A DNA stretch of 59,277 nucleotides, counting the filler, from Bipalium vagum (Eukaryota): assembly GCA_037834085.1 (NCBI GenBank). It is 3 parts of 3 records of this genome, joined end to end, with 100 filler letters (N's around TTAATTAATTAA, not from the genome) between each part and the next. Parts side by side here need not be neighbours in the genome. Positions count along the whole stretch, not along the records: positions 1 to 18,457 come from JBBMKC010023028.1; positions 18,558 to 36,150 come from JBBMKC010060147.1; positions 36,251 to 59,277 come from JBBMKC010214141.1. One strand, 5' to 3'. Position 1 is the stretch's first letter. Every line of letters begins with the position of its first letter. The notes beneath the pieces are model-generated. The model was not told the origin of the DNA. It saw nothing but the letters and a program-made list of their open reading frames with translations, and ran no database searches. A program made the translations under genes and the position numbers. Below are positions 909 to 36,945 of the stretch, one piece after another.

Positions 909-2377
909 GAGAGTCCACCAGCAAAATCCAGACAAGGTTTGTTGAGATATTGTGAAACAAAATTTAATTAATCTGAATTTAAGATATTTTTAAACGTTAA
1001 TAAATCTGGATTTTTTGAGAATCATAATAATAGAAAAAGTGACATCCGAATTTAATTGAAGAGTGGCAGTAATGGAAAGGCTGCAAGCTGGAATGTCGTC
1101 TTAGAAAATTATTGGGTTGGTTAGAAAGTTCGTGCGTTATTTTAATATTGAATTTGTAAATCAAATTTTCATAAATTAATCATTCAGTTGTTGTTTAAAT
1201 AATATAATAGTCTTAAGCGATAATTAAAATGTTATTATGGAAGAAAAAAACTGCATTTTGTCATATTTTTTATTTTGAAAAGGGTAAGTATTATATTATT
1301 TATAAATATTAAATTAATTTTAAAAAAGTTAAGCGCGCCTCGGATGGACATAGGGAAATATGTAAAGTATTATGAGATGATGCTTTATGAATACGATTAT
1401 GCAAAAAATGGTTTGCCAAATTCAGTTGTGGAGAATTCGATATGAACGATGCATCCCACTCCGCACGCCCTTCTCACTTTGATCCAAACCCTATTGGATC
1501 ACTGTTGAGTCTATTATCGAAAGGAATCCATTGAACACGGTTCGGGAAATCGATAATAAAGATATCGCAAAGAACGGTAGATAAACATTCAGGGACGATT
1601 AGTCTGGTAGAAGGCACATTGGCACTTTTTTCTGCCAAACAACCACAGTAGTCCTACGAACGTGACATCATAAATTTGGCGGAAAGATGGAGAAAAATCA
1701 ATAATAATAACGAGGAGCATAATAATATAATTGATTAAAAATTTTTTTAACAATAAAATATTTTTATTTTGTCTTTTCATTAAAAGTCGCACGAACTTTC
1801 TTGCCAACCCAATCATTTTTCGGGTATTCATGGTTCACCGTATATTTCACAAAAGTATTCTACTTTGGATATTTCCGGAGAAGATCCTGCTAATTCAGTA
1901 AGGATTATTTTCTGCAAGCCTTTATATGTGTGTTGTTTCAAGTGAGGGTAAAGTTATGTCATCATATTTCTTTGAATCTGGAGAAAACATTACAAAGGAT
2001 ATCTACCTTGGGGTTCTGGTGTCAACAGTACAACTTTGAATCACTGCTCCAGATAGTCCAGATTTAAATCCTTTAGACTATTTCGTATGGAGAATTATTG
2101 AAGGAGTTTCTAATAAGTCCAGCCATGCCAATAACTCAGATCTTCAAGCAGTTTTTGTGACAGAATTTGACAATATAGAAGGCAGCAGGTAACGAAAACA
2201 TGTTTACGCTTTCGGCAAAGATTATAGGATAGAATAAACTAACAAAGAATAAACTTACAAATCTAGAACTCTTTAATTAAAACATTATTTTATTTGTTAC
2301 ATTAACTTATTTTTTCAAATAAATCTTGGGTAGATATAATTTTGTTTCCTTTGTCCGGATTTTGCTGGTGGACCCTG
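909..2377 (+). mobile_element. Decayed, internally deleted maT/DD37D-type DNA transposon, interrupted by a nested mariner
   Basis: Terminal inverted repeats (TIRs): 909 GAGAGTCCACCAGCAAAATCCAGACAA vs reverse complement of 2351..2377 CAGGGTCCACCAGCAAAATCCGGACAA, followed by TA. Transposase remnants: KVTSEFN*RVAVMERLQAGMS..KI|SFFGYSWFTVY across the nested insertion, VVSSEGKVMSSYFFESGENI, and APDSPDLNPLDYFVW. Confidence 0.8.
1112..1812 (+). mobile_element. Internally deleted mariner (701 bp) nested in the DD37D element; transposase N-terminus contains a putative 45-nt intron
   Basis: TIRs TTGGGTTGGTTAGAAAGTTCGTGCG (1112) and CGCACGAACTTTCTTGCCAACCCAA (ends 1812). Frameshifted N-terminus MEEK.LHF.HIFYFEK[G]...KRASDGHREICKV..DDAL..RLCKKWFAKFSCGEFDMND. 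Confidence 0.85.
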
Positions 2378-5300
2378 TATAAATTGCATCATATTGGAAA
2401 CTTATAAAATTGAATAGAACATGTTTTGATTTCAAGTCGATTTTTTAATTAAACAATTGTCAGCTTTTAACTAAAAATGGAATATATTAAATGTCAACGA
2501 AAAATCGTAATTCTTATGACTGAATTCTCACTTGGAATTAAAAACTGAGGAGTTCAAAAATTAAAATATCAATTTTGATTCTGTCTGTATTTGAATATTT
2601 TTATAAAAGTTACCAAAAAAAGTAATACTTTATGAATTATTTTTATTTTTCAGAGTCTTCATAGAATTATTTTTATGTAAATCAGTACAACATGGTTTTG
2701 TACTTGGTTAAATTATTTTAGTTCTTATAAACGGATTTTGTTTCAATTCACGAAATGTTGTTTCCTGTTTATTCTTCTTACCTTAAAGCACATGATATAT
2801 TCTCGGAAAATGTTTATAAAATAATGCATGTACAATTTTTATTTTTTCCTCATTTTAATTTTTATTAAATAAAATATTTGCAAAATTGACTTTATGGTTT
2901 ATTAAAATATTATTATTCAATTAAACAAAAGAACATTTAGAAGATCGAATTTAATCATCATCTCTCAAATTTGGACCTCTTAAGTTAATGAATCAGTTTA
3001 TCGAGATTTTTTCTTTTCTCAATGTAACAACGAGATTTCGGAAGTCTGTAGAGTATTCTTTTGTCTTTTTACCCATTCAAATAATCAATTCGGAAATAGA
3101 TTTAGAGATCCTATGAAAACCTTGTAAAGCTATATAAATTAAAAATCCCTTACGTTTATTTACACAAAATAAAACGTTAAAAAAATATTTTTTTAAGATT
3201 AAAATGCTATTTCATAAAAGGTCAAGGTCGTACGAATAATTTTTGTATATTAATAATCAGAAAAATTCTAATTTAGAAAATTTAGAAATTTTCATTATTA
3301 AAAATCTACACCAACCTTAATAAATAAACGCATTAATAATGATAGTATTATAAACGCCGAAAACTTTTTAATACTCGTTGATTTTCTTTAAAAAATATAT
3401 GTTTCAAACATAAATGTAATATAATATAATCATACGGATAATTCTTGGAGTAAGTGTATATGTTTGATTTATAGCTTAATATGATGATCATAGCAACAAA
3501 TTTAAAATTGACAAGGTTTTGCACAGGAAAAATAAAGAAAAGGAAAATCTTCGATGTATAATGAAAAATTGAAGTAAATTGAGTATATAAGAAACAACTT
3601 ATAATAAAAGAGATTTACTTATTTTCCGAGGAATCTTGGTTTCATTGTAAATTTTGAAAGGAAATTTTTTCAGGTTTCCCGGTTATAATCTAAATGTAGT
3701 TACAACATTCTAATTAGAATTAGATAATTATCATTGTTTTATAATGGTTTTTCCTATGTTGAGAAATCTATCACTCGATTTTGGATCATTTGGCGAATGG
3801 TAAGACTCCAATGGGTGAATGACATTGAGACAGTGAGTCTAAGTTGACCTTGAAATCGTGATAGTGGACCTAAAATTCAGAAATTATGGTTGTTTCTGAA
3901 GAATAGCATGTTCAGGGCATATCGCAGTTCAGTCTAGTCCGACATAGAGTCAGATCGTAACTAGTTACCACGATATCAACGAAAGCTTATTAAAAGGTTT
4001 TTTGAGGCTTCGCAAGATTATTATAAGGACCAACCTCATCATTTATTTTATCAAATTACGTAATACATATTTTAAAAATATCTTCAATTTTATTACAATA
4101 TTTAATACTCTCAATTAACTAATTAATTATGTGATCACTTGGGTTTGTTTAGCTTATATTATATTATATAATATATATATACTAAACAAACGTGTTTCTA
4201 ATATTTATTACCATTACATCGTTCCAATCATGTAACCATCTCTTTATCTTCAGTTTTCTCTCTGAAAGACCATTGGTCATTTTATCTGCATCGTAATTTA
4301 TAAACTTGAATTAATACTTTTAGTATTTTTAGAAAATATGTCTACCAGGTCCATCTGTACACTATTTCCAACCATGTCTTCGTTAACATCAATCCTATTC
4401 ATTGAAGTGATAATTCGTCAGCTACAGTAAGAAAAAGCAGTAAAAATAATTTCTGAAAAATTTTCATGAAAGTTGCCTATGTTGTCGACTACTGTATTGA
4501 ACACCTTTCACTTTACAAACTATGCTTTCGGGGAAGTTTACATCTGAAAATATAATTTGCAACCATTTCAAATCACTATTACACAATAAGTAGTTTTTTC
4601 TCTGACTTTACTACTGAATCTGTAGACCTGTGACATCCAGCATTATTTTACGACAATCATTATGCCTCATTTTATGATCTGTAAATATACAGCATGAGAT
4701 GATTTACCAAACATCAATTCTATTCAAGATTTTTTATATGCTTATTTCATATTCAATATATATGTAGTTAATTTGGACATAGTTTTACACCTTACTTTTA
4801 GTACACCTTTTCTTGCACTCATTTTATTTAATCACTTAAAGTTTTTTGGTAAGATGAGGCCATTATTTTTTAGTTTCCATATCTTGATTTTTACCATTGT
4901 TAATATGTTAGATATTACCTAAGCGTCTACGATCTGAATCCACAATATTATAGTTGAGTCCCTATGAAATAAGCAAGCCAAAAGGTCCAAAACATTTATT
5001 AAATCGATAATTACAATACATACGATTAATCACAAATGTCTAGTAGTTGTATACGACTGTCAACACCTCACCAGTAACTATGTCCCACTCATATCTTTAA
5101 GCAGTATTCAACTCCCTCACAAAAGAACCAATGTTATCAAACTTAAATAACATAAAATGAAATCAAATAAATGAGATAACGAGTAAATGGATTATGTTCA
5201 AACAAAATCGAATAAACTAATGAACATAAACATTATCTAGTTCCAACTTCAGCTCGCTTCCAATGAAGATTGCCCAGGCATACAAGAGCATTAGTCACTC

Positions 5301-5937
5301 TTCACAACTCCATAGGAACTAGAACACAACACAAAAGGTCATGTCACTCAATAACATCTCTCATTTATTTTTATTATCATGAATAGCCAATAAGTTCTGA
5401 GAGATATTTTTATATATATATATATTTAATTTTTGCTATTAAGGCCAACAGTTCAGAGTTGATTAGTTCAGACAGCTTTCATCAACGGTTTTCCTTCTGT
5501 TTTAAGGCAGACGGGAAATAATTCGCTCAAAATTTAGACCTAAAAATAACAAACTAAATTCCCTTTGCCTTTCAGGAGGAAGGAAATTAATCAATTTTCC
5601 CCTAATCCTAATTGGAGAGAATATTCTCTCAAAAGTCACGCTTCTCGCTCAATTTTCATTATCTTAAAAGCCATACGCTAGCATTAATTGAATCTTATTC
5701 ATTCAGTACAGTTACATAATTTACGAGATTTGTTTTAATGAGAGTTTTTGATGACTAAATATAATCTTTACATGTCAATAGCCACATCCCCCGACTAATT
5801 TTCAATTTATCTCACAAGTGCTAAAAAGCATTTTTATTTGTGTTAATAAAAATTAAGTTTTTTCGCGTTAATCGCATAATGTATTTGTATTTTTTCAGAG
5901 TAAACAGTGTTTATCAACGTAAAAATCTTATATTATA

Positions 5938-7211
5938 TTGGGTTGTTCAAAAAGTCAGTGCTTTTTTATTGCACACTTTAAACACATTTATTTAATATAA
6001 CAAAAACAATATTAATCTATTATGTATTCCCCGTTTTGATCAATTACCTTCTGCCATCTCTGTGGTAGCTTCATTATTCCTCGCAGATAGAAGTCTGCGT
6101 TTTTTTCTGAAAAGAACCTCTCAAGGTGCTCTTTGATAAGACCCTCATTACTAAATGCTATACCATTCAATGAGTTTTGCAAGGAGCCAAACAGATGGAA
6201 ATCGGAAGGGGCAAGGTCTGGATTATAGAGTGAATGTGGCAAAACATCTCACCCAAGGTCGAGCAATTTTTGGCGAGTGATCAAACTGATATGTGGTCTT
6301 GCGTTATCGAAGTGGAAGACCACCCCCTTTCGATTGACCAGCTCAGGACGTTTCTGTTGGATAGAATCGCTCAATCTCTGCAGCTGGTCACAGTAGATTT
6401 CCGAATTTATAGTTTTATTCTTCTGGAGTAGCTCGTAGTAAACAGGTCCCTTCCAATCCCACCAGATTGAAAGCAAAACCTTTTTCTGGTGAATATCTGC
6501 TTTTGCTTGTCTCTCAAGCGCTTCATCTTTTTTAGACCAGCTTCTTTTTCTGTTTACATTGTTGTACACGATCCACTTTTCGTCGCCCGTAATGATGCAC
6601 TTAAGAAATGGGTCGATTTCTTCGCGGTTCATGAGTTGATCGCACATGTCAATTCTATTGATTTTGTGAATTTTTTTCAATTCGTGCGGGACCCAGACAT
6701 TCAATCTTTGGATGAAACCAGCGGACTTTAATTGACCGTAAACGCTTCCAAAAAAAACGCAATTTCTCTGACCGTCGAGTGTTTATTTACTTTCACGAAA
6801 TCCGTAATTGTGTCGATGTCAACCATAGAAGGTCTGCCAGACCGATGAGCATCTTTGAAGGAAAACTTTTCTTCACGGAAACGGGTGAATCACTTCTGGC
6901 ATTGTCTTTCTTTAATGACACCTTCGCCATACACTTTCACTATTTTCTTTCTTGCATCAGTGGGATTTTTTCCTTTTTTGAAATAAAAAAATAAAATATT
7001 CCGCACATGTTCGTCAAAGTTCTCAATTTTTGAAACCCTATAAAAACATGATAAGTTTAAAAAATGAAGGTCAAACTGTACTTACATTTTAATTTTTAAT
7101 GTAAATAAACAATCAATTGTAAATATTGATATATAGCGGTGTATATTAAGTAAAAATTCTCAATTTATCAAAACTACTAAAAAAAACGCACTGACTTTTT
7201 TAACAACCCAA
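5938..7211 (-). mobile_element. Near full-length mariner (DD34D) element, 1274 bp, pseudogenised transposase
   Basis: About 30-bp TIRs (TTGGGTTGTT(C/A)AAAAAGTCAGTGC) with TA on both flanks. ORF fragments carry WVPHEL, ITGDEKW, FHFDNARPH and YNPDLAPSDFHLF. The ORF has frameshifts and an internal TGA. Confidence 0.95.
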
Positions 7212-7261
7212 TATATTGCTAGTATCGGTAAAGAAGGTTAGCTATCAATCAACCTGTTATA

Positions 7262-11695: not shown

Positions 11696-14600
11696 GTAAT
11701 AATAATAATAATGTATTATTATTTAAAAGATTCTCATATGTACAAAAAGAATAATAGATAATGGGAAGTAGAAGAATAAGTAGAAGAATAAGTAGAAGAA
11801 TGTTAAGAATTGAGAAAAATAACAAAAATCAAAACTGTTACCCATAAATCTGAGTCGACGATAATCTTCGATATTTTTAACACAGTTCTGTCCAGCTGCA
11901 TCAATTCATTCATATTTTGGTCGATCTTTTCAGTCAGTTCATGGTGCAGCAGAGTCACATTATGATTATTAAAACTCGATAGGGGGCGAATCTTGTTTTT
12001 CCAATACATTTGTTGTTCTTTGACTACATCAAATTTGTCGATGAAAGAGTCTGACAAGATAGCAATGTTTTTCAATTCATTTTTCAAGAAAAGAATCTGA
12101 TTTATGACTTCTGAAACTTCTCTTCTAACTTCAGGGGAATCGATGACAATCTGTGAAGTTTGAAACAGTTTACATATTCGTAAAATAATTTATCTGAAGT
12201 AAACTTAATGTCAATAAAGTTTCAATATAAAATCTCCAGAAATGTCAATGGACTCACCGGAAACAAATTACAATTCCACAATGCTTTGGCAAGCAGTCAG
12301 ACGTTTATATTTTTAACGATGATATTGAGTATTCAAAAGCAATCACTTAAATAAAAGGAGTTTGAAGATATTCGAAGAAGTACCTTCGAAATCAATCTCC
12401 AACATAAATAACAGATTTTTCAACAAAAATTATTTAACTTTAACAATTTGACGAATGAATTAAAAGCTAAAAGTAAACATTAAGCAATAATATTAGTTTT
12501 TCTTTTATTTCTTTTATTCATTATTGTATGATTATCAAAATGAAATAATTTTTCAGCAAAATTAGAAGATTATGAATTTTTATAAAAAATAACAAGATCA
12601 TGGAAATCTTTTTCTGTCTGAAGATAAATTTAATTGATTTTATAATGAAACTTAAATTAACCAATAAAGGCATTAACAATTTCATTAAAAGAAAAAATAA
12701 ATGTCTAAGGGTCAGCCATATATGACAACAGTCATAATTGTAAGTTTTCATCTTAATTTGATCCCACAGCCAATCTAAAAATCAGTGGGGTCAAGAACCG
12801 ACTGATTTTTATTTATTTTACATTTGATTTAGGTGAATTTATAAAAGTTCTGTGAAATTGTGGCTTAAAAGCCAAGCTAAAGAGATGTACGAAACCAATT
12901 TCAGAGTAATAAAATATTACACAAATCAAGTAGTTAAACCTTCATACCTTATCAGACATCATTAGTTGATATCTTAAAATATCTTATATCTGTATATAAT
13001 ACAAAAATTATACCATTAAATTAAATAATTAAATTTCACAATATATTTTATGAAACATTGAAATAAATAATAAAGAGGTTATGATTACTTTTAATGAGTT
13101 TTTTAAAATCGGAATGTTTAAAAACTGAAATGAAAAACATTATTATATTAAATTTTTGATATTTTTCAAACCAAAAATGTTTATGAAATTATTACACCAT
13201 GATAAAACAAATATATTTTTCAAATAATAATAAAAGTTATAATAACATAAAAATAAACTCAAACTATCCATTTAATCATACAGGGTGCTTCATAAATATT
13301 ATTGATTATTATTTGCTTTAAACGCCTATACATATTTATGAAACACCTTGTATTTGCTAAACCTGTAATATGTACCCATTTAAGAGAACAAAATATAAAT
13401 ATAAATATATATAAAAAGTTAAAGATGGTGACATTCATGAAATTACATGGTCAAAATAAGACATATAAAACCAATTTCTGAATGTCTCGGAATATTTCTT
13501 TAAAAAGATTCGAAAGATTTTCTATAAACTCTTGATAATTTTATTGCAACAGAATAATTGTGATTTTCTCATTTCCGTCTTAATTCCTCATAATAAACAG
13601 AAAGAACAGGGTCCGGAATATTTCTTTAAAAAGATTCGAAAGATTTTCTATAAACTCTTGATAATTTTATTGCAACAGAATAATTGTGATTTTCTCATTT
13701 CCGTCTTAATTCCTCATAATAAACAGAAAGAACAGGGTCCTCCCTAAAAAAACCTAAAAAAAATTTAAATCTAATGATCTTTAAATAATTTTCACTCAAC
13801 CAGTATTAAGTGAAAAATAATAATAATTATTTTTTGCAGAGAATAATAATTAATGCATTAGCCATAATTAACGTATTGTTTTTCCAATACTGACGATATT
13901 TTTACTTTAAAAGACCAGATATTGTGTCTAATAATAATTTAACTATACTTTCATGTAATATTAGAAAAAAATCTAAAGACTTATAAAAATTAAACATACA
14001 TTTTGCATGTTTATGATCCACAGTTCTAATATTTTTGTTAGATCTTTCCACTGATCTACTATATTATTAATCGTAGTAGACAATACTCCTTCCCGAGCTA
14101 TCACTACATTGTTGAAAATTTGATATCTATTCGTATAGTCCTTTAAAAACAGATCCAACGATTCAAGCTCTAGCTTGATACGACTGAGTTCTCCATTAGA
14201 AAGTTTTGACATATTTATGAAGTCAGATTTTGGCTGCACAATTAACAGTGAATCTTTGATCCACTGTTCTAGAGACAGTATATGATCATTGATTAAATCA
14301 GATTTCGCAGAAATTTCTGAAATTCCATAACTGTTGGTATCTTCAAGCGACTGCTTATTTGAATCAAATTTTGACTGAAAATTCTTATCTCTTTCAACAC
14401 AACGAGCGTACGCATTATTCCATCTATATTCGATTTCTGAATTTAATCGGTCAATAAGCTAAAATTATTGAATATAAAATCACCCCGGACAGCTTCATGA
14501 GAATAATTTTTCAAATCAGGGATATTATTCTCTGCCATTAAATGTTCTAATTCTGCTTGCAAGCCCTTAATGAGATCGATCTTATATCGACTGGCAATGA

Positions 14601-17823: not shown

Positions 17824-18457
17824 CTGAAACCAAGAAAAAAGGGCATGACAAACAAATGTATCCCAACAATTAATCAACTACTTCAAAGGTTTTTCATACT
17901 TTTGTTATATCATATCAAAAAGTATAATCTGATTAAGTTGATACAGCTCAAACTCAGCAGCTTATCTTTAGCAAAGAACGAAAGAGAAATTACCACTGAT
18001 ACGATTTAAAGTGATTGGTGTTGTTGTTCGAAACAATTGTAAATTTTTTGTCAATCAGAACGAATTTGATATAATTGTTCAAAATTTTTTTTATATGAAA
18101 TGAATATTTGTATGCCAGGTCATCAAAAAAGTTTCCGGAGTATGTTAATGAACAATGAGTATGAACAATAAATAATAAATCAGAGGTAACTTTTTTGAAA
18201 TTACAAATTGCAATCACTGTAAGGATGTTATATTAAATTAGAATCTATTAATAACACAACAAATATTTATTACTAACACATCTGGCATGTTATATATATA
18301 CATATATATATTAATCAATGACATTATGAATCACCACTATACTTTTAGTTTTTGTTTGAAAATGTCATGAAAAAGTCTCGATATATTAGGTTGTCCCATA
18401 TGAAATGTCCGATTACGTAATATACAATAAAAGCAATAAAAGTCCAATAAATTCAAA

Positions 18458-19880: not shown

Positions 19881-20345
19881 GTATATTATTTAGTTAAGTT
19901 ATACAGGAAACGAAAACCGATAGATTTACTATGACCAATTTTATTCTAAGGTCAGCAAATTTTTCGGGAGATATTGGTGTTTGCTTTCATGTCAAACTAA
20001 ATGCTGCAGAAAGTCAGGATGAATCAGATGATATCAGAATCTTATGGTAGCCACGCTGTCTGAAACATGCAGTCGAGATTGGTTTCGGCAATTCAAATGA
20101 GTGACTTTGATTTGCAGGATAAACAACATCCAGGTCAACCAAACCTATTGATCACTTGGAGTAGATTCTATTCTTAACGAAAGTTGTGTTCCATCTGAAA
20201 TGTGCACATTTCGAAGGTCGAAATTTCTTGTGAAGCCAAGGTCAGATTTCAACAGCTCGGTCTATTAGCTTCTGCATGAAATGATAATTTGTGCTTACAA
20301 GAACGAGGTCAAATGAGATCGCATTATTTTATATCAGAATAGCAT
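19881..20345 (+). mobile_element. Degenerate Mos1-like mariner fragment
   Basis: ATG at 19931. Frameshifted MTNFIL..REILVF.FHVKLNAAES...SESYGSH...CRDWFRQFK.SDFDLQDKQHPGQP resembles the Mos1 N-terminus. Confidence 0.7.
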
Positions 20346-20919: not shown

Positions 20920-21585
20920 TTAGGGTTTTCAAGAACTTATTCACTATTAAATTTTAAAACGACAGTATTCCAACAAATTATCGTAATTTTTGTTTAATTA
21001 TATCATATTACGGCGCGCAATTTGTATTTCTAAATGATACAATATTTAATTAATAATTTTTAATGATTAACATAAACTTATATGTTTAGATGTCTATTGT
21101 CAAAATTGAAGTTCGTGCTTGTGTGTTTTATGACTAAGCGCGGTTGCAGTGTTGTAGAAAATATTCGTAGGATAGAAGAAGTCTTTGGTAAAGGGTTCTT
21201 ACGTATTTACGAAAAAATGGTTCCAACAATTTCTAAATATCAAAATGAGCCTTGAAGATGAAACACTGTCTGGCTGATATTTATGATGTTATTCTAAAAT
21301 CAATTCATTCCAATCCAAGGTTGACATTAGATAAGCTATCTTAAAACCTCAGCTGTTTCTTATCAATCATTTGGAATCATAAAAAACGATCAAAATTTAA
21401 CTAAAAATTGTGCCTCACAATTTAAGACAATCTCAACAAAAACATCAGTTAAACATTTGCTCTTCTTTGTTAGTGCGCATTTGACCGAATAAGTACGGTA
21501 GACGAGAAGTGGGTCTTGTATAATAATTCTAAATGTTCGTCTTTATGGGTACAACCTGGTCAAATCTCTGGTCGCTTTCCTATAT
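20920..21585 (+). mobile_element. Degenerate mariner 5' half
   Basis: TIR-like TTAGGGTTTTCAAGAACTTATTCAC near 20920. ATG at 21090 starts MSIVKIEVRACVFYD; later motifs KWFQQF, VPHNL and TVDEKWVLYNN. Confidence 0.7.
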
Positions 21586-21754
21586 AATAGAAGTTCAGCA
21601 GTATTTTTATTTCTCTTGAGAATTTCATTAATTGGATTGCATTTTCTAAAACTTTCCTTCATCTTATTAAGCCGTGGTAGTCGGGAATATGCAATAAATA
21701 ATTTTTTCTTGTGTTAAAATCTAGTTTTTCCCTCTATCTTATTAACTGTCTTTT

Positions 21755-22050
21755 ATCAGGTTATCACAAATGAAATGTCCAAGTTTGGAAATCGTTTTTT
21801 AAATGAATATAAGCCAAGTAATTATTATCATACAAAATTTATTTATATCAATTTGAAATTTGAAATCTGAATAATCATTAGATAATATTTGTTTTAATAT
21901 AAGAATGAAAGGAATTGAAAATAAAAAATACGGAATTGTGGACTATATTTATATATGAATGAAAATTGAAGCATAATGAAACAGAAGCTGCCATAAACAT
22001 TAATTTCGCATTTGGAGAGTTCAGCTAATGAAGGAACGATTCATGGTATT
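21755..22050 (+). mobile_element. Mariner 5' fragment (Hsmar1/cecropia-like)
   Basis: TIR-like TCAGGTTATCACAAATGAAATGTCC, similar to TTAGGTTGTCCCATATGAAATGTCC at about 18386. Remnant KLKHNETEAAININFAFGE..ANEGTI. Confidence 0.6.
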
Positions 22051-22998
22051 TAAATTTGGTCCTGTTCAGATTTTCAGGTTGAAAACTACCTGAATTTTAA
22101 TTATTTAAGCAACGCATTTTTTAAAATTTAAGGGAGCGGCAGATGAAATGTCGTTGCAATATATTTGAGTTGAAGCATTCGTTTGTCTGGTCATTTCCAT
22201 TGCAAACGATATTAGGGTACTCATTCATCATTGTGGAATTATAATTACATTATTTTCATTTGTAGTATTTACATTAACCTTTGTTTGAACGAATGTTATT
22301 GGTATTTATTTCATTGTTATTATGATAGAAAAAATTATTATTAAGACAAAAATTTAAAAACTATTTTATTCGCAATTCAAACATATATTGATCATTTGGA
22401 ACAGTACAAATTTCAAAAGTTTTCCAAGTTCTCGATTTGATGAATTAAAATTCTCATTTGAAAGTGAAATACCATCCTCGAAGAAAGTTGCGGTCTGAAA
22501 TTCACGTTACATTTAATTTTCTTTTGAAACATATATTAGGCAATCAATTCCACTCTTAAGGGTGTTAGTCGTTCTTGCGTAATCATAAAAACACGCATAT
22601 ATATCTGCATTGTAAAACATGTTCAGATGATTGCTGGTGATTACGTGAAAGTTTTGCAATCTATTACGTCTAACGTTGTTTTGTGGGGACTTATGTTTGC
22701 CGTGATTTATTATTACTAATGATAGAAATTATTTGGTTTCTATTTGGCTAGGTAAGTCATTAGACTTTGATCGGAAAGGAATTGCAGTTAAACTAATTCC
22801 ACGTTTTTAGAGATCCAGGTTGAGAATAAAATTGAAAACATCAACATTACAATTATTTTTATCATAATTGAAAGTATGAGGCTTTGAATAGATTTAATTT
22901 TAAAGAAATTTAATTCTTTAATTTAATAATTACGTAGTTATAAAGTAAATTATAAATTATTATTTTAAGTTTATTAAATTTAAACTACATGATTAATA

Positions 22999-23277
22999 TT
23001 AGGGATATGCATAAGTTCACATCTTTTTAAGACGTATAATTTTTATTATTATTTTTAATATTACAAATAAGAGAATACATTCAATGAGAATATTTCCCGT
23101 TATTATTTAAAACCTTTCTCACTTTTCAGGTAAAAGATGGATACTCCGAATAATGGTATAAATATAATCAATATTGACTAAACAAAATATAAATTTTTAG
23201 ATGTTACATTATTATTATTATTGATATTAATTTAAATTCCACATACATCAACAGTATGAACTTATGCATACCCCTAA
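22999..23277 (-). mobile_element. 279-bp mariner-derived MITE (internal deletion derivative)
   Basis: TIRs TTAGGG(A/G)TATGCATAAGTTCA with TA flanks. It retains the transposase C-terminal remnant IHLLPEK*EKVLNNNGKY on the minus strand. Confidence 0.9.
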
Positions 23278-24849
23278 TAAAATATATTAGTTATCATATT
23301 TATTGTTATTTTTCGTAAATAAATTTGCTTTTCTGAAATAANNNNNNNNNNNNNNNNNNNNNNNNNNNNNNNNNNNNNNNNNNNNNNNNNNNNNNNNNNN
23401 NNNNNNNNNNNNNNNNNNNNNNNNNNNNNNNNNNNNNNNNNNNNNNNNNNNNNNNNNNNNNNNNNNNNNNNNNNNNNNNNNNNNNNNNNNNNNNNNNNNN
23501 NNNNNNNNNNNNNNNNNNNNNNNNNNNAATAATGTTTATAGTATGAAGTTATTTAAACTTAAACATTTAAAATTGAAATATGTTTAATAAAAAATTTTTA
23601 AATGTTGAAATATGTATTTTTAAAATTTTTTAATATAATAAAAAGTTCAAATTATGCTTTATTGAAAAAAAGATTAATTATATTTCTTTTTGAATTTTTC
23701 AAATATTTTTTTATTTAAATATTGTAAGAGAACAATTGAATTTCAATTTCATTCAATTATTCACTTCAGAAAATAACATGAAAGTTTATGAAATATTTTA
23801 TTTAAACATTTCATAAGAGTAAAAAGAGTACATCAGTTTATAATTCCAAATTATAAGCCTTAATTATAAGCAGCACAGTCTTTTACCAACTTTGAAGTCC
23901 TTCAATCTTTTAAACGCAATTATATATTTTGGAGTACAAGTGTCGTAAAATGGTATTTATAATTTAATAAAATTCAGTGATATATAAACTGAAAACTATT
24001 AATTTATTATTTATTTTTTTGGATTGGCAAATAAGTCCATTCAGTTTTTAAGAATTAAAATAAATTGTTAATTATAGTTTTAAAAATTAGTTTTACAGAA
24101 AAATATTCAAAATATATATAATTCTTTTCAGAAATATATAGAAAAAATATTCGACTGTTTCTATTTGAATTTGATCGCATTTTAGTCGGCCAAAAACATC
24201 AGCTGCATGGTTGCTATTAAAATGATAGGTTTCATTGTTTCGTCATCTGTTTATTTTTTAAATCAAATTTAGAGCCATTTTATGCTTCGAAATCAAAGAC
24301 GGATCTTTCGATAGGGACTGTTTTATGGTCTTTATTAGTGACAAGCTATACAATCATTTCGATAGAAATTCTGGGGATGTATTGCTGATGGACAATTGAA
24401 GGTTCCATCACCGCAAAGATTATTAAATTGGTCACAGATTTCTACCATACTCGCCTCAACTACAAGTCGTAAATATCATCCTTTATGAGAACCATTATAG
24501 ATCAGGACAATTTATATGAATTAATTACCCAAGTACTCATGCATGACAATATCGATTTAAGTGATTATTTCGCAACATGAGGTGGTTTATAAAAAAAGCC
24601 TTGGCAAGACAAGAATCTATTTAGAATAAATTTCCACTATATATTTTGAATATTTTTATATACACCTCTGCATAACCCTGTAAAAACAAATTAGAAAAAT
24701 AGGTCTATTTATGTCTCAGAATATATTTTTGTTTAAATAATATATTTTTATCCAATATTTAAATAAATTAGAGTTATTTTGGATTATTGTAGTTAAAATT
24801 AAAGAGAAATTTTAGAAGGAATAAAATATTTACTAAATAAAATATTGTC

Positions 24850-25880
24850 TATGATTCTTGATCACCTCCTTTTATCTTTCGAAAGCGTCATAATTCCTTT
24901 TTTGAAAAAGCTCGAATATTGAGCTTCGAAAAGCTGATTATTGTGCAATTTTCATAATTTATAAATGTTTTCCATTCACAGAATTCTACAACAATTCAAA
25001 AAATGAGAAATTTGCTAGAGCAATATCAGGACTGTACGGTGAAGGGTGCAACATATTCCAATATTGTTCCCATTAGTTTTTGCCAAGTAGTCAAGGATGA
25101 GTGCGGTCCTTCACTGTCGTGAAAGAAGACGACACATTATCGATTGAGCAACTCTGATCGGCAAATTTTATGTCATTAAAATTGTTAACTGTTGAATGTA
25201 GGTAGCAAATTAATCGTTTCATCGCATGGTAAGAATTCAAGGTAAATATTTCCTTTGAAATCCCATCTAACTGACAGCACCACCTTCTTCTGATTGATTC
25301 CCCTTTGGGGATCATCTGTGCTGATTCACTTTTCTTTCACCACTATTTTTTTCGGATTACATTATTAAAAGTAATCTTTTTTTTCATCTCCTGTAATCAA
25401 TCGTTTTAGGAAAGTTTCAGTCTTGTTAGGTCTCAGTAGCAAATCAAATATGGTCATTAATTTCCTTAAATTCATAATGAATGCATACATCAAGATTTTT
25501 TATATATCCCAGTTTGTTTTAACCTTTTTTGATTCATGTATGTGAAACACAGAGGGCTTCTGCTAGCTGACCTGTTGTGAGATGGTGATCCGATTCGACC
25601 ATCTCTCTAATTTGGTCATCATTAATGTTCAGTAGAAGCCCAGAACGTGATTTATCTTTCCTCGTTGCAATTCTGTATACCAATTTTGTCATTGATTTTC
25701 CTTTAAGATCTGCTTGCTATATATATCACACATCTCTTTGTACGCTTGTGTTGCATTTATTCCTTTTGTAAATTTGAAAACTACATTGTGACGAAAATGA
25801 ATATTTTTCCTCAACATTTTCGAAATTGCCTATTATTACGCGGAATACATTTTCACTCCTCCCTCTCTGTACAACTAACA
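24850..25880 (-). mobile_element. Degenerate mariner transposase
   Basis: ATG at 25817 starts MLRKNIHFRHNVVFKFTKGINATQAYKEMCDIY. Later motifs: FLKRLITGDE, FHDSEGPH and HPSPYSPDIA. Confidence 0.8.
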
Positions 25881-26595: not shown

Positions 26596-26669
<74 letters not shown>

Positions 26670-27815: not shown

Positions 27816-27883
27816 TTCATTCTTTTTTGTCTTACAAAAAATATGAAATTTTATCTAATGTCTAAAAGTTTAGAACTTTTATA

Positions 27884-29175
27884 AAGAGTGGCCCATATAT
27901 ATGGATACCGCCACTTCTAAAAATTGCTATGAAAAATTAAGCTACATAGTAACTAAAACAAAGACATTTTTGAAATCGTATTATATTGATCTTTTTATTG
28001 AATAATTTATTTAGCAATAATCCTCTAGATGAAAAGACAGCAACACGAATTTAACGCCAAGGCAATTATTGCTTTTTTCTAAGAAAATTCTCAAAATAAA
28101 CTGGTTACGGTTAATCACTTTAGGCAGCAAAATATTAAAGAGAGAACAATCCGGAATGTGATATCACGCTTTCTGAAGACTGGGGTAACAGATTAAAAGT
28201 CAATATGAGGTCGTAAACCGGTTGTTAACTCTCCCAGAACCCAAAGAAAAGTGTTGAAGCACGCGAAAAACAACAGATCACTGTCAGATCGCGTGACATC
28301 AAAGCAGTTGAATCTGAGTCGTAGTACCTATCAGAGAGTAAAAGAAGCGGTTGAATTGCGTAACAGAAAGAAGCAGAGGAACCTAAGTATAATAAGGTCA
28401 GATACAGCGTTCAATTAAGTGGTCAGCTAAGGTTTACAAGGATAGTCTTCCAAGTGGCAAAAATTACTTCTTTGTTTTGGATGACGAAACATATGTGCCA
28501 CTAGATCCGACGCAAGTGCCTGGTAACCAATATTATTTGTAGAATAATGAAGCGGAGACACCATTTGAATAGCGTGTAGTTCAAACCGATAAATTTGAAA
28601 AAAGGTTTATGATGTGGCAAGCGTTGGCAGAAGATGGATCTGTTTCAGAGCCGTTTGTGACTAATGGTGCCGTTAATGGTGAAATTTATCTAAAAGAATG
28701 TATTGAAAAGCGTCTTTTGCTGTTTTTACAAAAGTTATGTCTAAAGGCCAATTTTATTTTGGCATGATCTGACAACTTCGCATTATTGTAAAATTGTGAA
28801 ACCCAAATTCAGGAAAGAGGGCGTCAACTTTGTTACTAAAGAACAGAACCCACCGAATGTGCCACAGTTACGCCCAATTGAAAATTTTTGGGCACTTTGT
28901 AAGCACAGATATCACATGCTGAATAAACCAGTTGAGTCGAATCTGGACACGTATCTTTAAGGAAATTGCAGCTGAGTCTAGAAAAACCTTGTTTAAACAC
29001 TTTCGATAAAAATTGCGCACTTATTCCGAAAAAGGACTACTTTCTGTTTACATTTTGTATAAAAATGTTCTTGAATATAAATGTTATTCTTTCTAAAAGT
29101 TTACTTATGCTTATGTTTGCTGGTTTACCAAATGTAAAGGTTTGACTGCGCTGTATCTATATATGGGTCACCCTA
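27884..29175 (+). mobile_element. Full-length but decayed DD37E (ITmD37E-like) DNA transposon, about 1.29 kb
   Basis: TIRs AAGAGTGGCCCATATATATGGATAC and reverse complement TAGGGTGACCCATATATAGATAC, with TA flanks. ATG at 28029. Catalytic triad FVLDDETY, FWHD, then exactly 37 residues to the E of NPPNVPQLRPIENFW. Several stops. Confidence 0.9.
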
Positions 29176-31872
29176 TAAACTCTAAATTAAGAAGTCTGCT
29201 GTAAAATGAAAGAAGTATATCCAGCAGAACGACAAACATTGTATTGATTTCATATGATTTTGAAAAAAAGTATTTTTTACTTTCTATATAGAAAAAGACC
29301 AACAATATATCGAAGGTTGGGATAGGCAGTCTTTTTTGTAAACACAAAACAAGCAAATTATTTAATTTCGTGTCCTTTTCTTCATAACAAGAAGTCGTAT
29401 TACACTTGGATTTTGTATTGCTTCAAGACTATTTTCAAAATATTCTCTTTTAAATGAAAACAGAGATCAATATAATACAACCAAATTGATAAAAATTTGA
29501 TTATACACAAAAATATATACATGTACATCATATACATATATATAATGAATAAATAAATCTGTATAAATCTATCTTCTTTATGTGTAATAATATAATATTT
29601 TTTGTATAAATAAAAGTATTTCTTCGAAATTCTTAGTTGAAATTTGTTTTGCAAAGAGTTGCAAAATTTTTTCCGTACCCGGTATTTACAAAAGAAATTA
29701 AATTATTTTAAATTCTTTTCTCTGCAAGTGATAATACATATTGGGCGAACCCCGTAATTTTTTTTAATAAGTAAGTTTGATACATTGTATAATAAATTGA
29801 CATTTTTATTACCATTTATAAACATTAATTGTTAATTGCACTGCCTATCAGTATGATTTATCAATCAAATGAGAATTATAAAGAATATTTATGTGGAGAA
29901 TATAGAAGAAATATAGGCTCGCTGTAATTCTCGGATTGCTTTTATGAAATAACTTGAGTGATTACAAATAGCTTCAAATCAGAATCCTTGAAACATGTAC
30001 CCGTCGTCCACCGCTCCAGCTGCTATTTCCAATTATCTCCGACATCTATCAATTTGAGAGGAGAATCGTGGACATAATCAAATTTATTGAATCAATTTAT
30101 TGAATCAAAATGAAAAGCACTGTTGAAAATTAAAGAGATTTTTGAAATAAGAATCAGATTAATCAATTTTATATACATTTCTCAGAAATATTTTTAAAAG
30201 GAGAATTCATATTAATTTAATTTATCAAAAAAAATTGTAAATTTTTTATTTTCTCTATAAACTATCACAAAATAGCATAAGGAAAATTATTAAAAATGTA
30301 TAATTAATATTTTTATTTATTTAAAAATATATTAAATATAATATACAAATATAATAAATAATTATNNNNNNNNNNNNNNNNNNNNNNNNNNNNNNNNNNN
30401 NNNNNNNNNNNNNNNNNNNNNNNNNNNNNNNNNNNNNNNNNNNNNNNNNNNNNNNNNNNNNNNNNNNNNNNNNNNNNNNNNNNNNNNNNNNNNNNNNNNN
30501 NNNNNNNNNNNNNNNNNNNNNNNNNTTTTTATTAAAAAATATACTAGATTTTTTTTTCTATCAACTATCATAAAATAACATTGAGAAAACGAATAACAAA
30601 AATGTTTTTTTCATTATTTAATTATTTATTTACGAATACATTATTTTAGCGAAATAAACTGAAACATAAATTATTCATTTTAGAAAAAAAATTGTGGGAA
30701 AGAAATTTAATATTATTTCGATGTAATTTGATGAAGAAAGTTATTTAATTTTATACAATGATAAACATTCAAATTTCTTGTGAAAGGAAAGTGTTTTGTT
30801 TATTATATTTTATGATTAGAAAGAATCTTCAAAAAGTAAAACAAAAATTGCTAAAATTTCCAGCTTTCCAAACTTTCAGAGATAATTACATTTTGTTATA
30901 CTGCAATTAATAAAATATTGACAGATAAAACAAATAAATGTGTAATATTTCCACGGTTCATATAGACGATCATTCAAAGTTAGGGATATTCTTGTCATAG
31001 ACAGATATTTTAATTACTATAATTAAAGAAATGTCTTAAAAGCATATCTGAAAGACTTAGCAATATCTGAGATAAGTAACATGAATGGGCAGTTAATATT
31101 TGGCTGGAAATGACAATAGATCCGATGTTTATGTCACATAATTCCAATATAAATATAAAGATATATTCTCATATATACTTTTAACACGGGTTAAAGTTTG
31201 TCTTCATGATAAAATTAATATTAATAGAAATTAAGCGGAGTTACCGACCGCAGTTTCTGGAATAGATATGAGGATGGTGCATGCGGCGATTGATGATTGG
31301 CTTTGACTCGTAACAGTCTGTATGGAGACAAGGGGTTGTCATTATCAATAAACATTGAACAAAATTCATTGTCGTTTATTCTTATTTGTATTTCAATAAA
31401 AGTTTCTTTTCTAAATACCTATTGTGATTTCATAAGATTTTTTGAAGTTATGACCAAAGTTAAATATTCAATGAGAATACATTAGTCAAAAATGCAGAGT
31501 TAAACAACGGAGTTGTACTGGGCATTGTCTACCACTTTGATACCACAAAGTAAAGACGTTCCAAATTGATAAAATTGAGAAAGGATTTTAAAAAATTAAT
31601 ACAAAATTATAATTTTATATTTAATTCTCTGAAATGTCATCAAAAACGATTTTTGAAAAAGAATTTATTTGTATAATTAATATAGACAGAAAACTACAAG
31701 ATATCTTTCACTCATCCTGGCTGCCAGGAAAAGAGTATATTTTTTAAATTAGAAAAAGTTTCTGAACATTTTTTTGTCGCCTATTTTCAATTTACATCAG
31801 GATTTGGAATTTTTGTAACATTAACGATAAAATAATAATAATAATAATAATAATAACAATCAAAATAATATA

Positions 31873-31994
31873 AAGTGAAGCTTCGTTAATTCCTACTCGA
31901 ATCAGAGTTTAACAGACTTATTAATTTATTATTTGTCGGTTATTTATTACAAAGTTTTGTGTCCCGTAAGTTTTGAATTAGCGAGGTTTCACTG
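31873..31994. mobile_element. 122-bp pogo/Tigger-type MITE
   Basis: AAGTGAAGCTTCGTTAATTC vs reverse complement of the right end, CAGTGAAACCTCGCTAATTC. Confidence 0.7.
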
Positions 31995-32532
31995 TTTATA
32001 AAGTATCCTTAAATTTAATTAAAGATTTTTTTTAAAATCAATCATTTTTAAAAAAATAAAATTAAAGTGTTACTTAAAGAAAACATAATTCATGCTTTTA
32101 TTTCTGCTTTCTTGATTTGTTGAGCTAAACTCCCTTTTATTCTTTTCATCATCAATGACTTGCATATGACCTTGGAGAATTCATTTCAAGAGTATAACTC
32201 GTTCCTTCTCTCTTTTTAAAAAGCAACGTTTTGTACTCTTTGTTTGTTCTGTGTTTATTGATATGCTCACGAATTCGAACTTTAAAGTGGTGGTATTTGA
32301 AAACCCTATTAATTTGCATTAGTTTTGGAGTAAGTCTTAACTTTCAATAAACACTAATCTTTGTAGTTATTGGAATTTTATTTTTTATATTTCACCTCGT
32401 TGAATCTTTCCTTATTTTTGATTCATTATACACATTTTCGTTAAGCCCAAACAATAATCACATTGATTAATTGTTTGATATTAATGAAACAACTCAAAAT
32501 CCAATTAATAAATGAATTCACATTTTATTTTA

Positions 32533-35074
32533 TTAGGTGTAAGCATAATTTTTAAACAATATTTTCATCCTTGTTTTACTAATCCAAATATATATTATCA
32601 AATAACTGCGGCGAAATTTTACATGGGTAATCAATATATTAATTTTATAAATATATTAATTTTATATAAACCAAAATATCAGTCTTCAAAATGAGTGATG
32701 AAAAATTGTACGTTCGGTGTTGTATAAGATACGAATTTGATCAAGGCAAAAATGTATACCAGGCATTTAAATCAATATGTTGCGTTCTTGGTAATAATGT
32801 AGTTTCCCGCAGTACATGTAAATACTCGTATCGTCGATTCAAAGGCGGAAATTTTGATGTTACCAATCGACCACGTAGTAGTACTTCACAGATATTGGAA
32901 TCAGCCAAATTGGAAGAGCTGCTGAATGAAAATACGGCCCAGACGCAAGCAGAATCGCTAAAAAACTTGCCGTTGATCAAAGAATTGGTGGGAGACGGTT
33001 ACACGACATGGGAAAAATTCAGAAGGATGAAACGTGGATTCCGCACGAACTTTCAGAAAGCAATATTTTATGCTGATTAACAGCATGCGCATACCTTTTT
33101 GCTAGACAAATAAACAGAGTTTCTATGGAAAATCGTCATTGGAGATGAAAAATGGATTAATTACAATAATCCAAAACGCAAACATTCGTGGTTGGATCCT
33201 GGAAGGCAAGCTACTTCAGTTGTCAAAAAATATTCACAATAAAAAAGTACTTCTTTGCATCTGGTGGGATATGAAAGGACCCATTCATTATGACCTCCTC
33301 CAAGCTGGTGAAACCATTAATGCGGAACGTTATAGCAAACAATTGCTGCATTTGGCTAAACAAATAGAGAAAAAAAACCTTTTTTCGGGAAAGGATCGCG
33401 TAAGATTGTCCTGCTACGTGACAATACCAGAAAGCCTGTAGCGAAACATACTCAAGAAACAATTTTACAGTTAGGCTGGGAAGTTCTTCCTCACGTGGCT
33501 TATTTTCCAGACCTTGCTCTTACAGATTTTCATTTGTTTCGCATAAATTAGCCTGGCTGTCGTTTCAAAAATGTTTAGCAAATACAAGTTTTGTCAAGAA
33601 TTATCTTGTGTCGAAATCAATATATTTTTATCGTTCTGGGATTCGACAATTATCTGAAAGATGGCAAAAAGTGATTTCCAATAATTGATAACGGGTGGCC
33701 AATAAAGATGATAATTCTTTGAATGACGTTTGACATAGACAGCATAATGTTAAATTAACTCAATTAAAAATATTTAATAAAGAATAAAACCAAAATTTAT
33801 TTAATTAAAACAGTTTATTATTAAACCTCCTTTGTGCCTGTCAAGGGCCAAAACTCTTTGTCGAAAGGAATCGATGGCTTGGCGAATCATATTTAATGGA
33901 ATTTATGCAATTGTTTCTTTAATTTTTTCAATCAGTTTTGTACGATTTTCAATTTTTTTTGTTTTCAGTCTATTTGATACTTCATCCCAAAAGAAATAAC
34001 CAAGAAGACTAAGATCTGGTGAATTTGGTGGCCAATGATTTGGAGCTATTATCGAAATACCAGTCTATTTGAATGCCGCAATAGTTTCTTTGCTTCTATG
34101 ACAGCTAGCACCTTTCTGCATATATATAAAATCGCTTCCAATGAGCTCCATTTCATATTCTGCAACGATTGGAAGTACACTTGATATATAAAATCTTGTA
34201 TCAAAAGATGTTTTTGTCGGTAAGAATACAGGTTTCATCGGACCCTGATATGTCCAACCCATACTATCACTTTCAAAGGATATTTTCTGTTTGGAAAAAA
34301 ACCACTTTAAATTTTCATATTTTCTAGATACAGGATAAACGACGTCGTTTTGTGGATTAAACTGACCATCTACATCAAAAGATTTTTCATCACTAAACAT
34401 AATTTTGTTCACTGCCTGTTTACTAAATCTTTTTTTAACCAACATAAGCACGTCTTTCGTTTATTGATTTGGGACTCCGATAGACAGGGAACTTTTATTT
34501 TCTAGTAGCACTTAAATCCCAAGTCTTTATGTATAATATTCCCAATAGTTCCTCTTGAACATTTGAAATCTAAAGCTAACTTTCTAGCTGATTTCTTTTT
34601 TTTGTTTGTTGTAAAGTTTCTGATAATTTTTTTGATAAATGTTTTCGTTTTACGGTTCTTGGACGTCCAAGGGAATTTTGAGCACGTAAAGATTTTCCCT
34701 CTTTTATTAGTTTAGTCCATCTATAAATAGTGGAATTTGATATCGTTTTTGCTACAGCTTCATAAATTTCATCCAGTGTTTTCCCATTTTCACAATGGGT
34801 TTTTCTCAAATTTCTTACACAGCTCTCATACGTCATTATCTAAAAGAAAGTATTGCTAAAAATAACGTATGTTTATTTTGCAAGATATTAAAAACCTTGG
34901 CATAAATTAAATCAATTAATAATTCAAATTTAAAATTTTTTAGTTTAAAAATAATCCGTTATTATGCTGATGACTTATTTTTTGAATCCCTGTCGTATAA
35001 AAATACAAATATTACTTTAATAACATTTAATTTTTTTTTTAAAAAAATGGGCTAAAACTTATACCTACACTTAA
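32533..35074 (+). mobile_element. Mariner (DD34D) element; pseudogenised transposase 32691..about 33688, with a DD37D element inserted at its 3' end
   Basis: Degenerate TIRs TTAGGTGTAAGCATAATTTTTA and reverse complement TTAAGTGTAGGTATAAGTTTTA, with TA flanks. Motifs: [35 protein letters not shown] and RWQKVI. Confidence 0.9.
33691..34995 (-). mobile_element. maT/DD37D-type element nested in mariner; decayed transposase (ATG 34836)
   Basis: FSDEKSF, then Q[K for D]GASCH, then 37 residues to the [G for D] in WPPNSPDLSLLGYFFW. The TIRs match poorly, so the ends are approximate. Confidence 0.85.
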
Positions 35075-36077
35075 TATAATACTTAAACAAAATTTCCTTC
35101 TAAGTAAAACAAAATATATAATTTTGTGGATCTCACTAAACATTTAGCAAAAACGAATATTTTTACTAATTTTATTGATTTTTATATTTTCCTGTAAAAT
35201 TCACCAAACATGCAAAAGAGAGTTTCAATGTTAAGTACACACATATGACATGAACAATGTTTTTTAGTAATAATCATAAGTAAATAATTATTATTAAATA
35301 TTATTTTTTAATAATTTAATATTATAATTATTTATAATTTTTTGGTTTAGAACTCACAGTTTGATTTTCAATTCTCAGTTTGATGAGGTCAAACGTAATT
35401 TGCTCAGGGTGTATGTTATTCATAAAAGTTTATTTCCTTTTCTGTTATTATGGAAGTTGGAGCTTTGAAGGATTTCACATTATATGGTTCATATTGTTGC
35501 TTCAACGTGGTTGCCGCTCTTTGAAAATATATGATTATCATAAAGCTTCTGGATGTAAAACTTGTTCGGGATGATTTCTTAAGAAAACATTAGAAAAAAG
35601 AAATTTATTAATTACAAAAGTCGTTACAAAAAATCTTTGATGTGAAACTAAAGAAAATCATTTGAAAAGAAGATTAAAAAGATTATAAAATATAAAATAA
35701 TTATTTGGTATATAATTTATCTAACGTAAATTATTAAGACATTTGAATACCATTTACTTATACAAATAATATTAAAAAAATAAACTGTACACTTACTTAT
35801 ATAATAAAAAATAAAAAGAAAAAAATCAATAATTTTTCATATAAATATTCACAAAATATCTGATATCATTAGATATGTTTATCATTAATTTTCCTAATGA
35901 TTTTTTATCCCAAAATGAATTTTTCCACTTCTTTTTTTAATATATTTTGATAATGATAATATCCATTATATATTTCAATATTAATGTACACTTAAGAAGC
36001 ATTCAAGTTATCTCAACACGAAACTCAACATAAATCTAAAAGCAGTAAAATAATAAGAGAAAATAAAAACAATTACA

Positions 36078-36080
<3 letters not shown>

Positions 36081-36150
<70 letters not shown>

Positions 36151-36250
36151 NNNNNNNNNNNNNNNNNNNNNNNNNNNNNNNNNNNNNNNNNNNNTTAATT
36201 AATTAANNNNNNNNNNNNNNNNNNNNNNNNNNNNNNNNNNNNNNNNNNNN

Positions 36251-36315
<65 letters not shown>
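36081..36315. repeat. (ATT)n microsatellite spanning an artificial 100-bp spacer (36151..36250)
   Basis: ATT repeats on both sides of N44-TTAATTAATTAA-N44. Confidence 0.95.
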
Positions 36316-36945
36316 CGCTATTCACCATCATCTATCATCACCTTTATTGTTCCAAGAACCCAAAAGTTTAACAAAAGAATGATTTTTGACGTTTATCATT
36401 AATTATTATTTTGTTTCTTTTGTTTCCAAATGTCCAATTTCGTGTTCCAATAAAGAATTACGATCCTCTTATCCCTAGAACTCAACAATTGCAATTTCAA
36501 ATAAATGGTTTTCAAAACAGTTTCTTATTAAAATATAACAATTTTCAAATTATTCACTAGACAATATATTTCGAATCATATTACTAAGTTGATTTGTATT
36601 TTCGAATATAGTAAATAAAAGTGAGAATGATTTAAGTATCCTAAAATTATAAATGATTATTTAAAATTCATTTGAAATCTTTTTTAAAATTGAAAAATGT
36701 CTATAAATTTAATTAAATAACCGTACAACTTTTTTACAGTAATTTTAATATATATTTCCATGTTCTACTCATTATTTCAAATAACTTTATTGAAGTTTTA
36801 AATTACAAAATTGTTTAGTTAAGTAGTTGTAATTAATTTCAATAGCGCATTATCGAATTTATTTATTATTTTCGGAATCCAACACTAGTAAATATTTATT
36901 TTTATATTTTAAAATGTAATATCGTGTTTTAGATTTTTATGATAA

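Follow-up and report, generated by a model that had tools for sequence, protein, structure and literature searches.

The window analysed here is a stretch of 59,277 nt of Bipalium vagum (assembly GCA_037834085.1), composed of three contigs joined with 100 filler letters between them. Most of its Tc1/mariner transposons carry a short GT...AG segment directly upstream of, or slightly within, the start of the transposase. We put at about one half the probability that these segments are real spliceosomal mini-introns, separately gained and kept for raising the amount of transposase mRNA. The observations behind this are host-like splice signals, enrichment of such segments as a group, their presence in the majority sequence of two element families and their absence from a sister family. 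From these sequence comparisons we infer that splicing, gain (as opposed to loss elsewhere) and a benefit for expression are all likely. The signals are real and the segments likely introns; a strict requirement of the host for splicing at the 5' end is not supported.

Splice signals at transposase starts

In hosts with tiny introns, a promoter-proximal mini-intron would raise the yield of transposase mRNA, and different element lineages would acquire one separately. Two routes of gain are suggested. An existing 5' untranslated region (UTR) could turn over at constant length, as proposed for the segment 7085–7038 on the reverse strand, or Gly-Lys codons that already spell a donor could be duplicated together with an all-AT filler, as proposed for 1284–1328 on the forward strand. 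The mini-intron would then be an advantage travelling with the element and no strict requirement of this host. Several separate gains are likely, because the mariners of the window are about 28–37% identical to the family of element E2 and the segments lie at differing places. The convergent acquisition suggested by an earlier, sequence-only reading of this DNA holds in part. Mariner and DD37D ends have candidates, DD37E and Tc1-like ends weaker ones; the positions differ, one appears to have come about by duplication and a sister family of E2 lacks the segment. The 7085–7038 segment, common to two other organisms, was not necessarily gained in this host.

Twenty host introns were placed in the window, of which 12 lie in VPS35, where homologues were aligned, and eight in a nesprin-like gene, where frame continuity was followed; a doubtful 32-nt intron of the latter was excluded. 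Eleven of the 20 measured 43–65 nt, much as had been described. Host splice signals were loose, with GTAAGT in two of 22 donors and acceptors ending in CAG, TAG or AAG. A splice weight matrix was trained on 22 donors and 23 acceptors of the host, and left-out host introns scored 1.1–15.5 bits with a median of 9.9.

All nine GT...AG segments of the sequence-only reading, eight in transposons and one in VPS35, were recovered with the same positions, lengths and ends. Twelve transposon 5' ends were scored: the eight transposon candidates, three ends listed earlier as negative and one more at about 24014. In the main setting (acceptor at most 20 nt from the ATG, length 40–70 nt, threshold 8 bits), E0 and E1 were entered as negatives after correction to their family majority. 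Eight of the 12 ends reached the threshold. Among 1342 random ATGs matched for AT content the share was 14.6% (binomial p 5.9e-5), so that, as a group, the GT and AG ends stand in a host-like context. Comparison with dinucleotide shuffles gave a Fisher p of 1.4e-4, and the group p ranged from 5e-6 to 2e-4 over five search settings. The comparison with shuffled and AT-matched sequence that had been proposed earlier thus showed enrichment of the group. The four non-mariner ends by themselves gave p 0.006–0.022. Candidate lengths of 43–68 nt resemble the 43–65 nt of the short host class, a match that the search settings in part imposed.

Mariner loci fetched from metagenomes served as an outside control. 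Of 80 such loci, 49 had a readable start; these were grouped in 15 families, with one member scored for each. Two of these 15 families reached 8 bits (Fisher p 0.99). The difference from the window ends (p 0.007) is weakened by the UTRs of the outside families, which are less AT-rich (58–83%) than those of the window.

Taken singly, the segments 1284–1328, 7085–7038, 32627–32682 and 34895–34840 were convincing, as were 36888–36932 in VPS35 and a newly found one at 24067–24131 (shuffle p 0.002–0.04). The segment 21024–21089 was borderline, and those at 25879–25830, 27978–28028 (p 0.13–0.16) and 19881–19923 did no better than shuffles. Among the three ends described as lacking a candidate, the one at 909 indeed has none when the family start codon is used, the one at 52618 does have one (p 0.07), and the one at 21755 has one only in a wider search.

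It is rather improbable that the acceptors alone matter, either as spliced-leader trans-splice sites, as the sequence-only reading had also considered, or as exon-trap acceptors borrowing an upstream leader. Flatworms use spliced leaders according to the portions of the literature available, and transposon-borne acceptors directly upstream of the open reading frame (ORF) are described in the accessible part of bioRxiv 2020.05.07.082677. The acceptors of the window stand mostly 0–14 nt before the ATG and hold the stronger half of the signal (acceptor-only enrichment p 0.004), and the best of them, at 24131, is paired with a poor donor. Donors, however, are also enriched alone (p 0.017), which in statistical rather than functional terms disagrees with the absence of a functional upstream donor expected of a trans-splice acceptor. 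The elements E6 and E8 have their sole good donor 56 nt upstream of the acceptor, and the E1 segment lies within coding sequence; the placement of the host among animal groups is itself weak. Since donors and acceptors are each enriched, cis-introns are favoured over spliced-leader acceptors alone; that alternative is weakened and keeps the stronger acceptor signal.

Segments of the E2, E1 and E0 families

E2 (5936–7213, reverse strand, 1278 nt, terminal inverted repeats (TIRs) matching at 26/28) is a high-copy mariner common to other organisms. Its protein is 92–93% identical to the intact relatives P0001 and P0124 (ENA, JGI and Logan records). A likely 5'UTR intron of 48 nt (7038–7085, reverse strand; 13.0 bits, p 0.01–0.02) ends 10 nt before the family ATG at 7027–7025, which reads ATT in the window copy. 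No change was found at its GT or AG in the rows common to all four runs. Removal of the segment would create an in-frame upstream ATG. A start codon split by the intron, making splicing obligatory, was considered and rejected, the family ATG lying downstream. No splice joint across 7038–7085 was present among 15 of the 151 joints listed, in contigs that drop rare variants. A spliced N-terminal extension was found in none of the ten members of the E2 protein cluster. Exact-pattern scans for the E2 donor gave no match in genome contigs and three unrelated ones in viral contigs.

The sister family of E2 (73–74% identity, named members from ants) has a UTR of equal length without splice signals, and these are also missing in more distant mariner families. 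Gain on the E2 branch without insertion is therefore the simpler reading. Substitution in place was dropped as not demonstrable, the UTR being as similar to those of distant families as to that of the sister family (about 40–45% identity); the constant length stands. The depth of E2 was very high in the run of the host as well as in organisms F and G (three studies). In F and G the neighbouring single-copy DNA was absent or thinly covered, which points to horizontal sharing of E2 between the host and these organisms. A comparison with relatives had been proposed to see whether the segments are lineage-specific, and its outcome is divided: the sister family lacks the signals, and the segment itself is present in two other organisms.

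A wider version, in which a guild of hosts (this animal and the organisms exchanging mariners with it) favours spliced transcripts so strongly that incoming Tc1/mariner elements remodel their 5' end, giving up the AGATGG-type promoter motif of arthropod-like mariners for a mini-intron, seems unlikely. The motif, presumably YY1-like, occurs in 8/15 outside mariner families and in 0/12 window elements. If this version were true, a 5' intron would determine the host range of horizontal transfer and would serve as a rule in designing transgenes for such hosts.

E1 (1110–1814, forward strand, TIR pair 24/28, ATG at 1237), recognised by tblastn, is an internally deleted mariner. It is nested in E0 (905–2381, forward strand, TIR pair 23/28), a DD37D-like element with its family start codon at 1039; a second nested insertion places E8 (33700–34996) in E6 (32531–35076). 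The likely intron of E1 (1284–1328, forward strand) is 45 nt long, a multiple of three, and falls within the G of a KGK turn. Its excision restores this turn of the first helix-turn-helix together with the helix spacing. E1 is the only element in which removal restores an open homologous frame, and retention is also in frame in the family majority. Standard KGK spacing was seen in 93 of the 94 scorable proteins among 144 fetched mariner proteins and an insertion in none of the 94; the other 50 did not fit the spacing pattern.

In the host contigs of run X1, the E1 majority has a better donor context (1282) and a restored glycine (1329), with no change listed at the GT or AG. At least four further host contigs span the segment. 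Its two junctions carry a direct repeat, 16/17 nt in the family majority, separated by a 28-nt all-AT filler. Such a repeat is the expected trace of duplication, because Gly-Lys codons already spell a donor, and the sequence thus suggests that the segment was likely gained by duplication of these codons. A 5'UTR candidate of E1 vanishes in the majority (1216), which leaves the family with just the coding segment. No joint across 1284–1328 occurred among 15 of the 16 joints listed, in contigs that again drop rare variants. The region 925–1375 had no contig from X23 and only distant fragments from X8 and X11. The segment is the best case of the set and a clear candidate for the birth of an intron from two duplicated conserved codons.

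For E0, a start codon at 1021 was rejected as the majority letters show ATG at 1039. The majority also removes a weak acceptor, and no GT...AG candidate of 40–70 nt remains. As for conservation of the splice dinucleotides in family majorities, proposed earlier as a check, they are kept in E1 and, among the rows listed, in E2, and the candidate of E0 is lost, these being the three families covered.

The main rival holds that the introns are real and act as a brake or switch: they would stay in most transcripts, and transposase would be produced only where splicing is permitted. This seems unlikely, albeit with a precedent: the accessible part of bioRxiv 2025.10.09.681459 describes a 41-nt intron in C. 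elegans Tc1, whose RNA is mostly unspliced and whose splicing is repressed by the host. Without splicing, E2 has an upstream ATG that meets a stop at once, and E6 has an upstream ORF in another frame; once spliced, both ATGs would be in frame. Unspliced contigs from X10 (243 nt) and X16 (1286 nt) bridge 7085–7038 with a one-base gap at 7042. Both samples were taken as RNA by guess only. The X16 contig extends over the TIRs at both ends, so read-through or DNA is a more probable source of it than transposase mRNA. A braking role is at odds with the upstream ATG being gained in frame in only three of five elements, no more than chance, with the main ATGs of E2 and E6 lying downstream, where splicing is unneeded, and with the E1 insert being stop-free in the majority.

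A strong form of the idea in the sequence-only reading is that the host cannot express, or silences, transcripts without 5' splicing and that every successful transposon gained a mini-intron. The high frequency across families, the same layout in VPS35 and the distribution of AGATGG given above are in keeping with it. Against it, the E0 family, multicopy in X1, lacks a candidate in the majority sequence, from which a mini-intron appears common here and not required. The E2 segment is common to other organisms. A HUSH-like guard is a poor fit, the accessible part of PMC8770142 showing little protection by very short introns, and Schmidtea mariners are described, in the portion available of PMC10558129, as not needing constant repression by piRNA. 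With no spliced contig seen either, this strong form is very improbable.

Returning to mini-introns that raise transposase expression, a number of points speak against them besides the multicopy E0 family and the unspliced E2 contigs. Majority sequences cover three families, and no spliced form was seen in the material covered, which consisted of contigs, those of X10 and X16 coming from other organisms. The run search listed no RNA run of the host, and 23 of its 24 rows were small shares. In E1, the majority letter at 1312, a noisy position where unrelated AT-rich contigs raise the depth, removes the in-frame stop of the 45-nt insert. Retention would therefore yield a 15-residue in-frame insertion, and the insert could be tolerated or irrelevant in a non-autonomous family. 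The splice model had just 22 donors and 23 acceptors to learn from. The search window was modelled after the fact on the description in the sequence-only reading, and the p-values are therefore optimistic. Three of its eight transposon candidates are no better than shuffles.

Some of the same numbers bear on chance and base composition as an explanation, with AT-rich UTRs, loose host signals and a plain duplication in E1. Some GT–AG pair of this kind is held by 38% of random ATGs, several candidates are individually ordinary, and the five ends outside the earlier list of 5'UTR candidates give only p 0.025–0.16 depending on the setting. Duplication of Gly-Lys codons would in addition make a GT and an AG automatically. 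Chance is nevertheless quite unlikely given a group p of about 1e-4 or lower across five search settings and three nulls.

Other elements and host genes in the window

E6 (32531–35076, forward strand) is a mariner with an HTH_48 match and with E8 in its 3' end. Its likely 5'UTR intron of 56 nt (32627–32682, forward strand) scored 11.7 bits (p 0.002–0.015), and its removal would place an upstream ATG in frame. E8 (33700–34996, reverse strand) is a DD37D element, its spacing counted by eye in translation. The likely 5'UTR intron of E8, also 56 nt (34840–34895, reverse strand; 11.0 bits, p 0.01), ends 3 nt before the ATG at 34836, a start codon that corresponds to residue 1 of relatives such as P0266. 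Its two catalytic aspartates are mutated in this copy; the relative P0266 is intact.

In the mariner E3, the 43-nt intron placed earlier at 19881–19923 (p 0.3) is probably misplaced. A far better pair delimits 68 nt at 19839–19906 on the forward strand, 24 nt before the ATG at 19931 (17.6 bits, p 0.002 in a 30-nt search window). The borderline 66-nt candidate of the mariner E4 (21024–21089, forward strand; 8.0 bits, p 0.06) ends at the ATG. A mariner 5' end at 21753 has a 64-nt candidate at 21818–21881 on the forward strand, 23 nt before an ATG at 21905 (8.7 bits, p 0.14, wider search only). The decayed mariner end E9 at about 24014 contains a likely intron (24067–24131, forward strand; 12.2 bits, p 0.01–0.02) absent from the earlier list. 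It has the strongest acceptor of the set and an uncertain donor (65, 55 or 42 nt), and its start codon is inferred. The mariner E5 holds a purine-rich 50-nt candidate (25830–25879, reverse strand; p 0.3), and no 5' TIR was readable for it.

E7 (27882–29177, forward strand, TIR pair 20/28) is a DD37E element with D-37-E spacing taken from the translation. Its acceptor adjoins the ATG at 28029 and its donor is at 27978 or, for a rival segment of 80 nt, at 27949 (p 0.06–0.19). A Tc1-like 5' end (TIR 52620, ATG 52493) has a borderline 55-nt candidate at 52506–52560 on the reverse strand (9.0 bits, p 0.05–0.14).

Start codons were backed by homology for the mariners and E8, and set by eye at 21905, 24134 and 52493. 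E2 is assigned to the mariners (DD34D) by size, TIRs and protein, E6 by HTH_48, E1, E3, E4 and E5 by profile, and the ends at 21755 and 24014 by TIR and N-terminal likeness judged by eye only. The 37-residue catalytic spacing of DD37E and DD37D elements was found in E7 and E8, as counted by eye.

On the forward strand at 29736–29853, a TIR-like start precedes a perfect GTAAGT donor, and the acceptor lies a single base upstream of an ATG (29771–29851, 81 nt). No transposase homology was seen there and the segment was left out of the counts. More TIR-like motifs without a readable start codon occur at 13279–13352 and 22998–23279, both MITE-like pairs (miniature inverted-repeat transposable elements), and at 18384, where the end is cut by an assembly gap.

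The window is animal DNA with a GC content of 26% and contains VPS35, the 3' part of the nesprin-like gene and numerous decayed transposons. VPS35 has 13 exons giving an open frame of 802 amino acids; one exon search gave no match. A quick tree of VPS35, with long branches, places the host next to flatworms, though with little certainty. A likely 45-nt intron lies in its 5'UTR (36888–36932, forward strand; 11.2 bits, p 0.02–0.045), 13 nt upstream of the ATG at 36946. The likeness of this arrangement to that of the transposons was rightly described, and the segment is convincing by itself against shuffles. The first intron of vertebrate VPS35, after the start codon, is presumably at about the same place, and the segment may thus be a long-standing intron of the host rather than an adaptation. 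The nesprin-like label is a reading of coiled-coil repeats and a C-terminal tail; Pfam gave weak matches only. An exact 126-nt tandem duplication within an intron (13488–13740) is possibly an assembly artefact.

Other repeats were noted as well. An unannotated AT-rich repeat at about 3040–3480 has high depth in X1, and a short stretch at about 5780–5817, with loose ends that read as tRNA-derived, has very high depth there; ARAGORN found no tRNA. At 49586–50122, a 217-nt inverted repeat pair (88% complementary) surrounds 103 nt, the translation of which may resemble a Penelope-type endonuclease end. Broken pieces resembling a Maverick/Polinton, with polymerase-like and integrase-like parts recognised by eye and no Pfam match, extend over about 50200–54600, with the Tc1-like end at 52620 inside. 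A broken long terminal repeat retrotransposon with RVT_1 and RT_RNaseH matches occupies 56752–59277.

Relation to known systems

Introns can be gained by tandem duplication of a proto-splice site, and a C. elegans paper reportedly describes default silencing of intronless genes. According to the parts available, Tc1/mariner elements are intronless as a rule (PMC10379824), and introns go unmentioned in the accessible text of PMC7325037. This rule is judged on the ORF, and 5'UTR mini-introns would therefore escape notice. Subscription journals and Repbase entries aside, no description was found, in the main texts covered, of several ITm families in a single host with paired 5' mini-introns. The Tc1 intron, acceptors before transposase ORFs and TLEWI are already known; the multi-family pattern in one host would be new. 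Mini-introns in several unrelated families of a single genome would mean that transposons adjust RNA processing to their host; the pattern also allows a direct test of whether 5' splicing limits working transposons and transgenes in such hosts.

Intron-mediated enhancement and HUSH could explain how a mobile gene might profit from a 5' intron. As far as the accessible texts go, introns near the gene start increased mRNA 10–17-fold in C. elegans (PMC12055998), and HUSH protection grows with intron length, being weak or absent for very short introns (PMC8770142); these effects were shown in nematode and human cells. The bivalve Tc1-like TLEWI elements (bioRxiv 10.1101/656579, in the part available) are likewise ITm transposases with GT–AG introns, called rare in class II elements. 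They are DD36E elements with 3–6 coding exons, no TIRs and low copy number, probably domesticated, whereas the elements here bear TIRs, are multicopy and have one 5' segment each.

Proto-splice-site duplication resembles 1284–1328 in the direct repeat with AG–GT at both junctions, removal of which restores the codons. The differences are the 17-nt repeat, the 28-nt all-AT filler and the location inside a transposase.

Mlmar1/KRABINER and others have an acceptor directly upstream of the ORF in the family consensus, in 8/9 vertebrate cases (bioRxiv 10.1101/2020.05.07.082677). These were studied as exon traps, for which the accessible part describes no paired donor or mini-intron, whereas here donors are enriched at host-intron distance. 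The nearest parallel to 1284–1328 is C. elegans Tc1, an ITm element with one host-sized intron of 41 nt (bioRxiv 10.1101/2025.10.09.681459, accessible part). That case concerns one family and a coding intron with splicing shown; here, several families carry mostly 5'UTR segments with predicted splicing.

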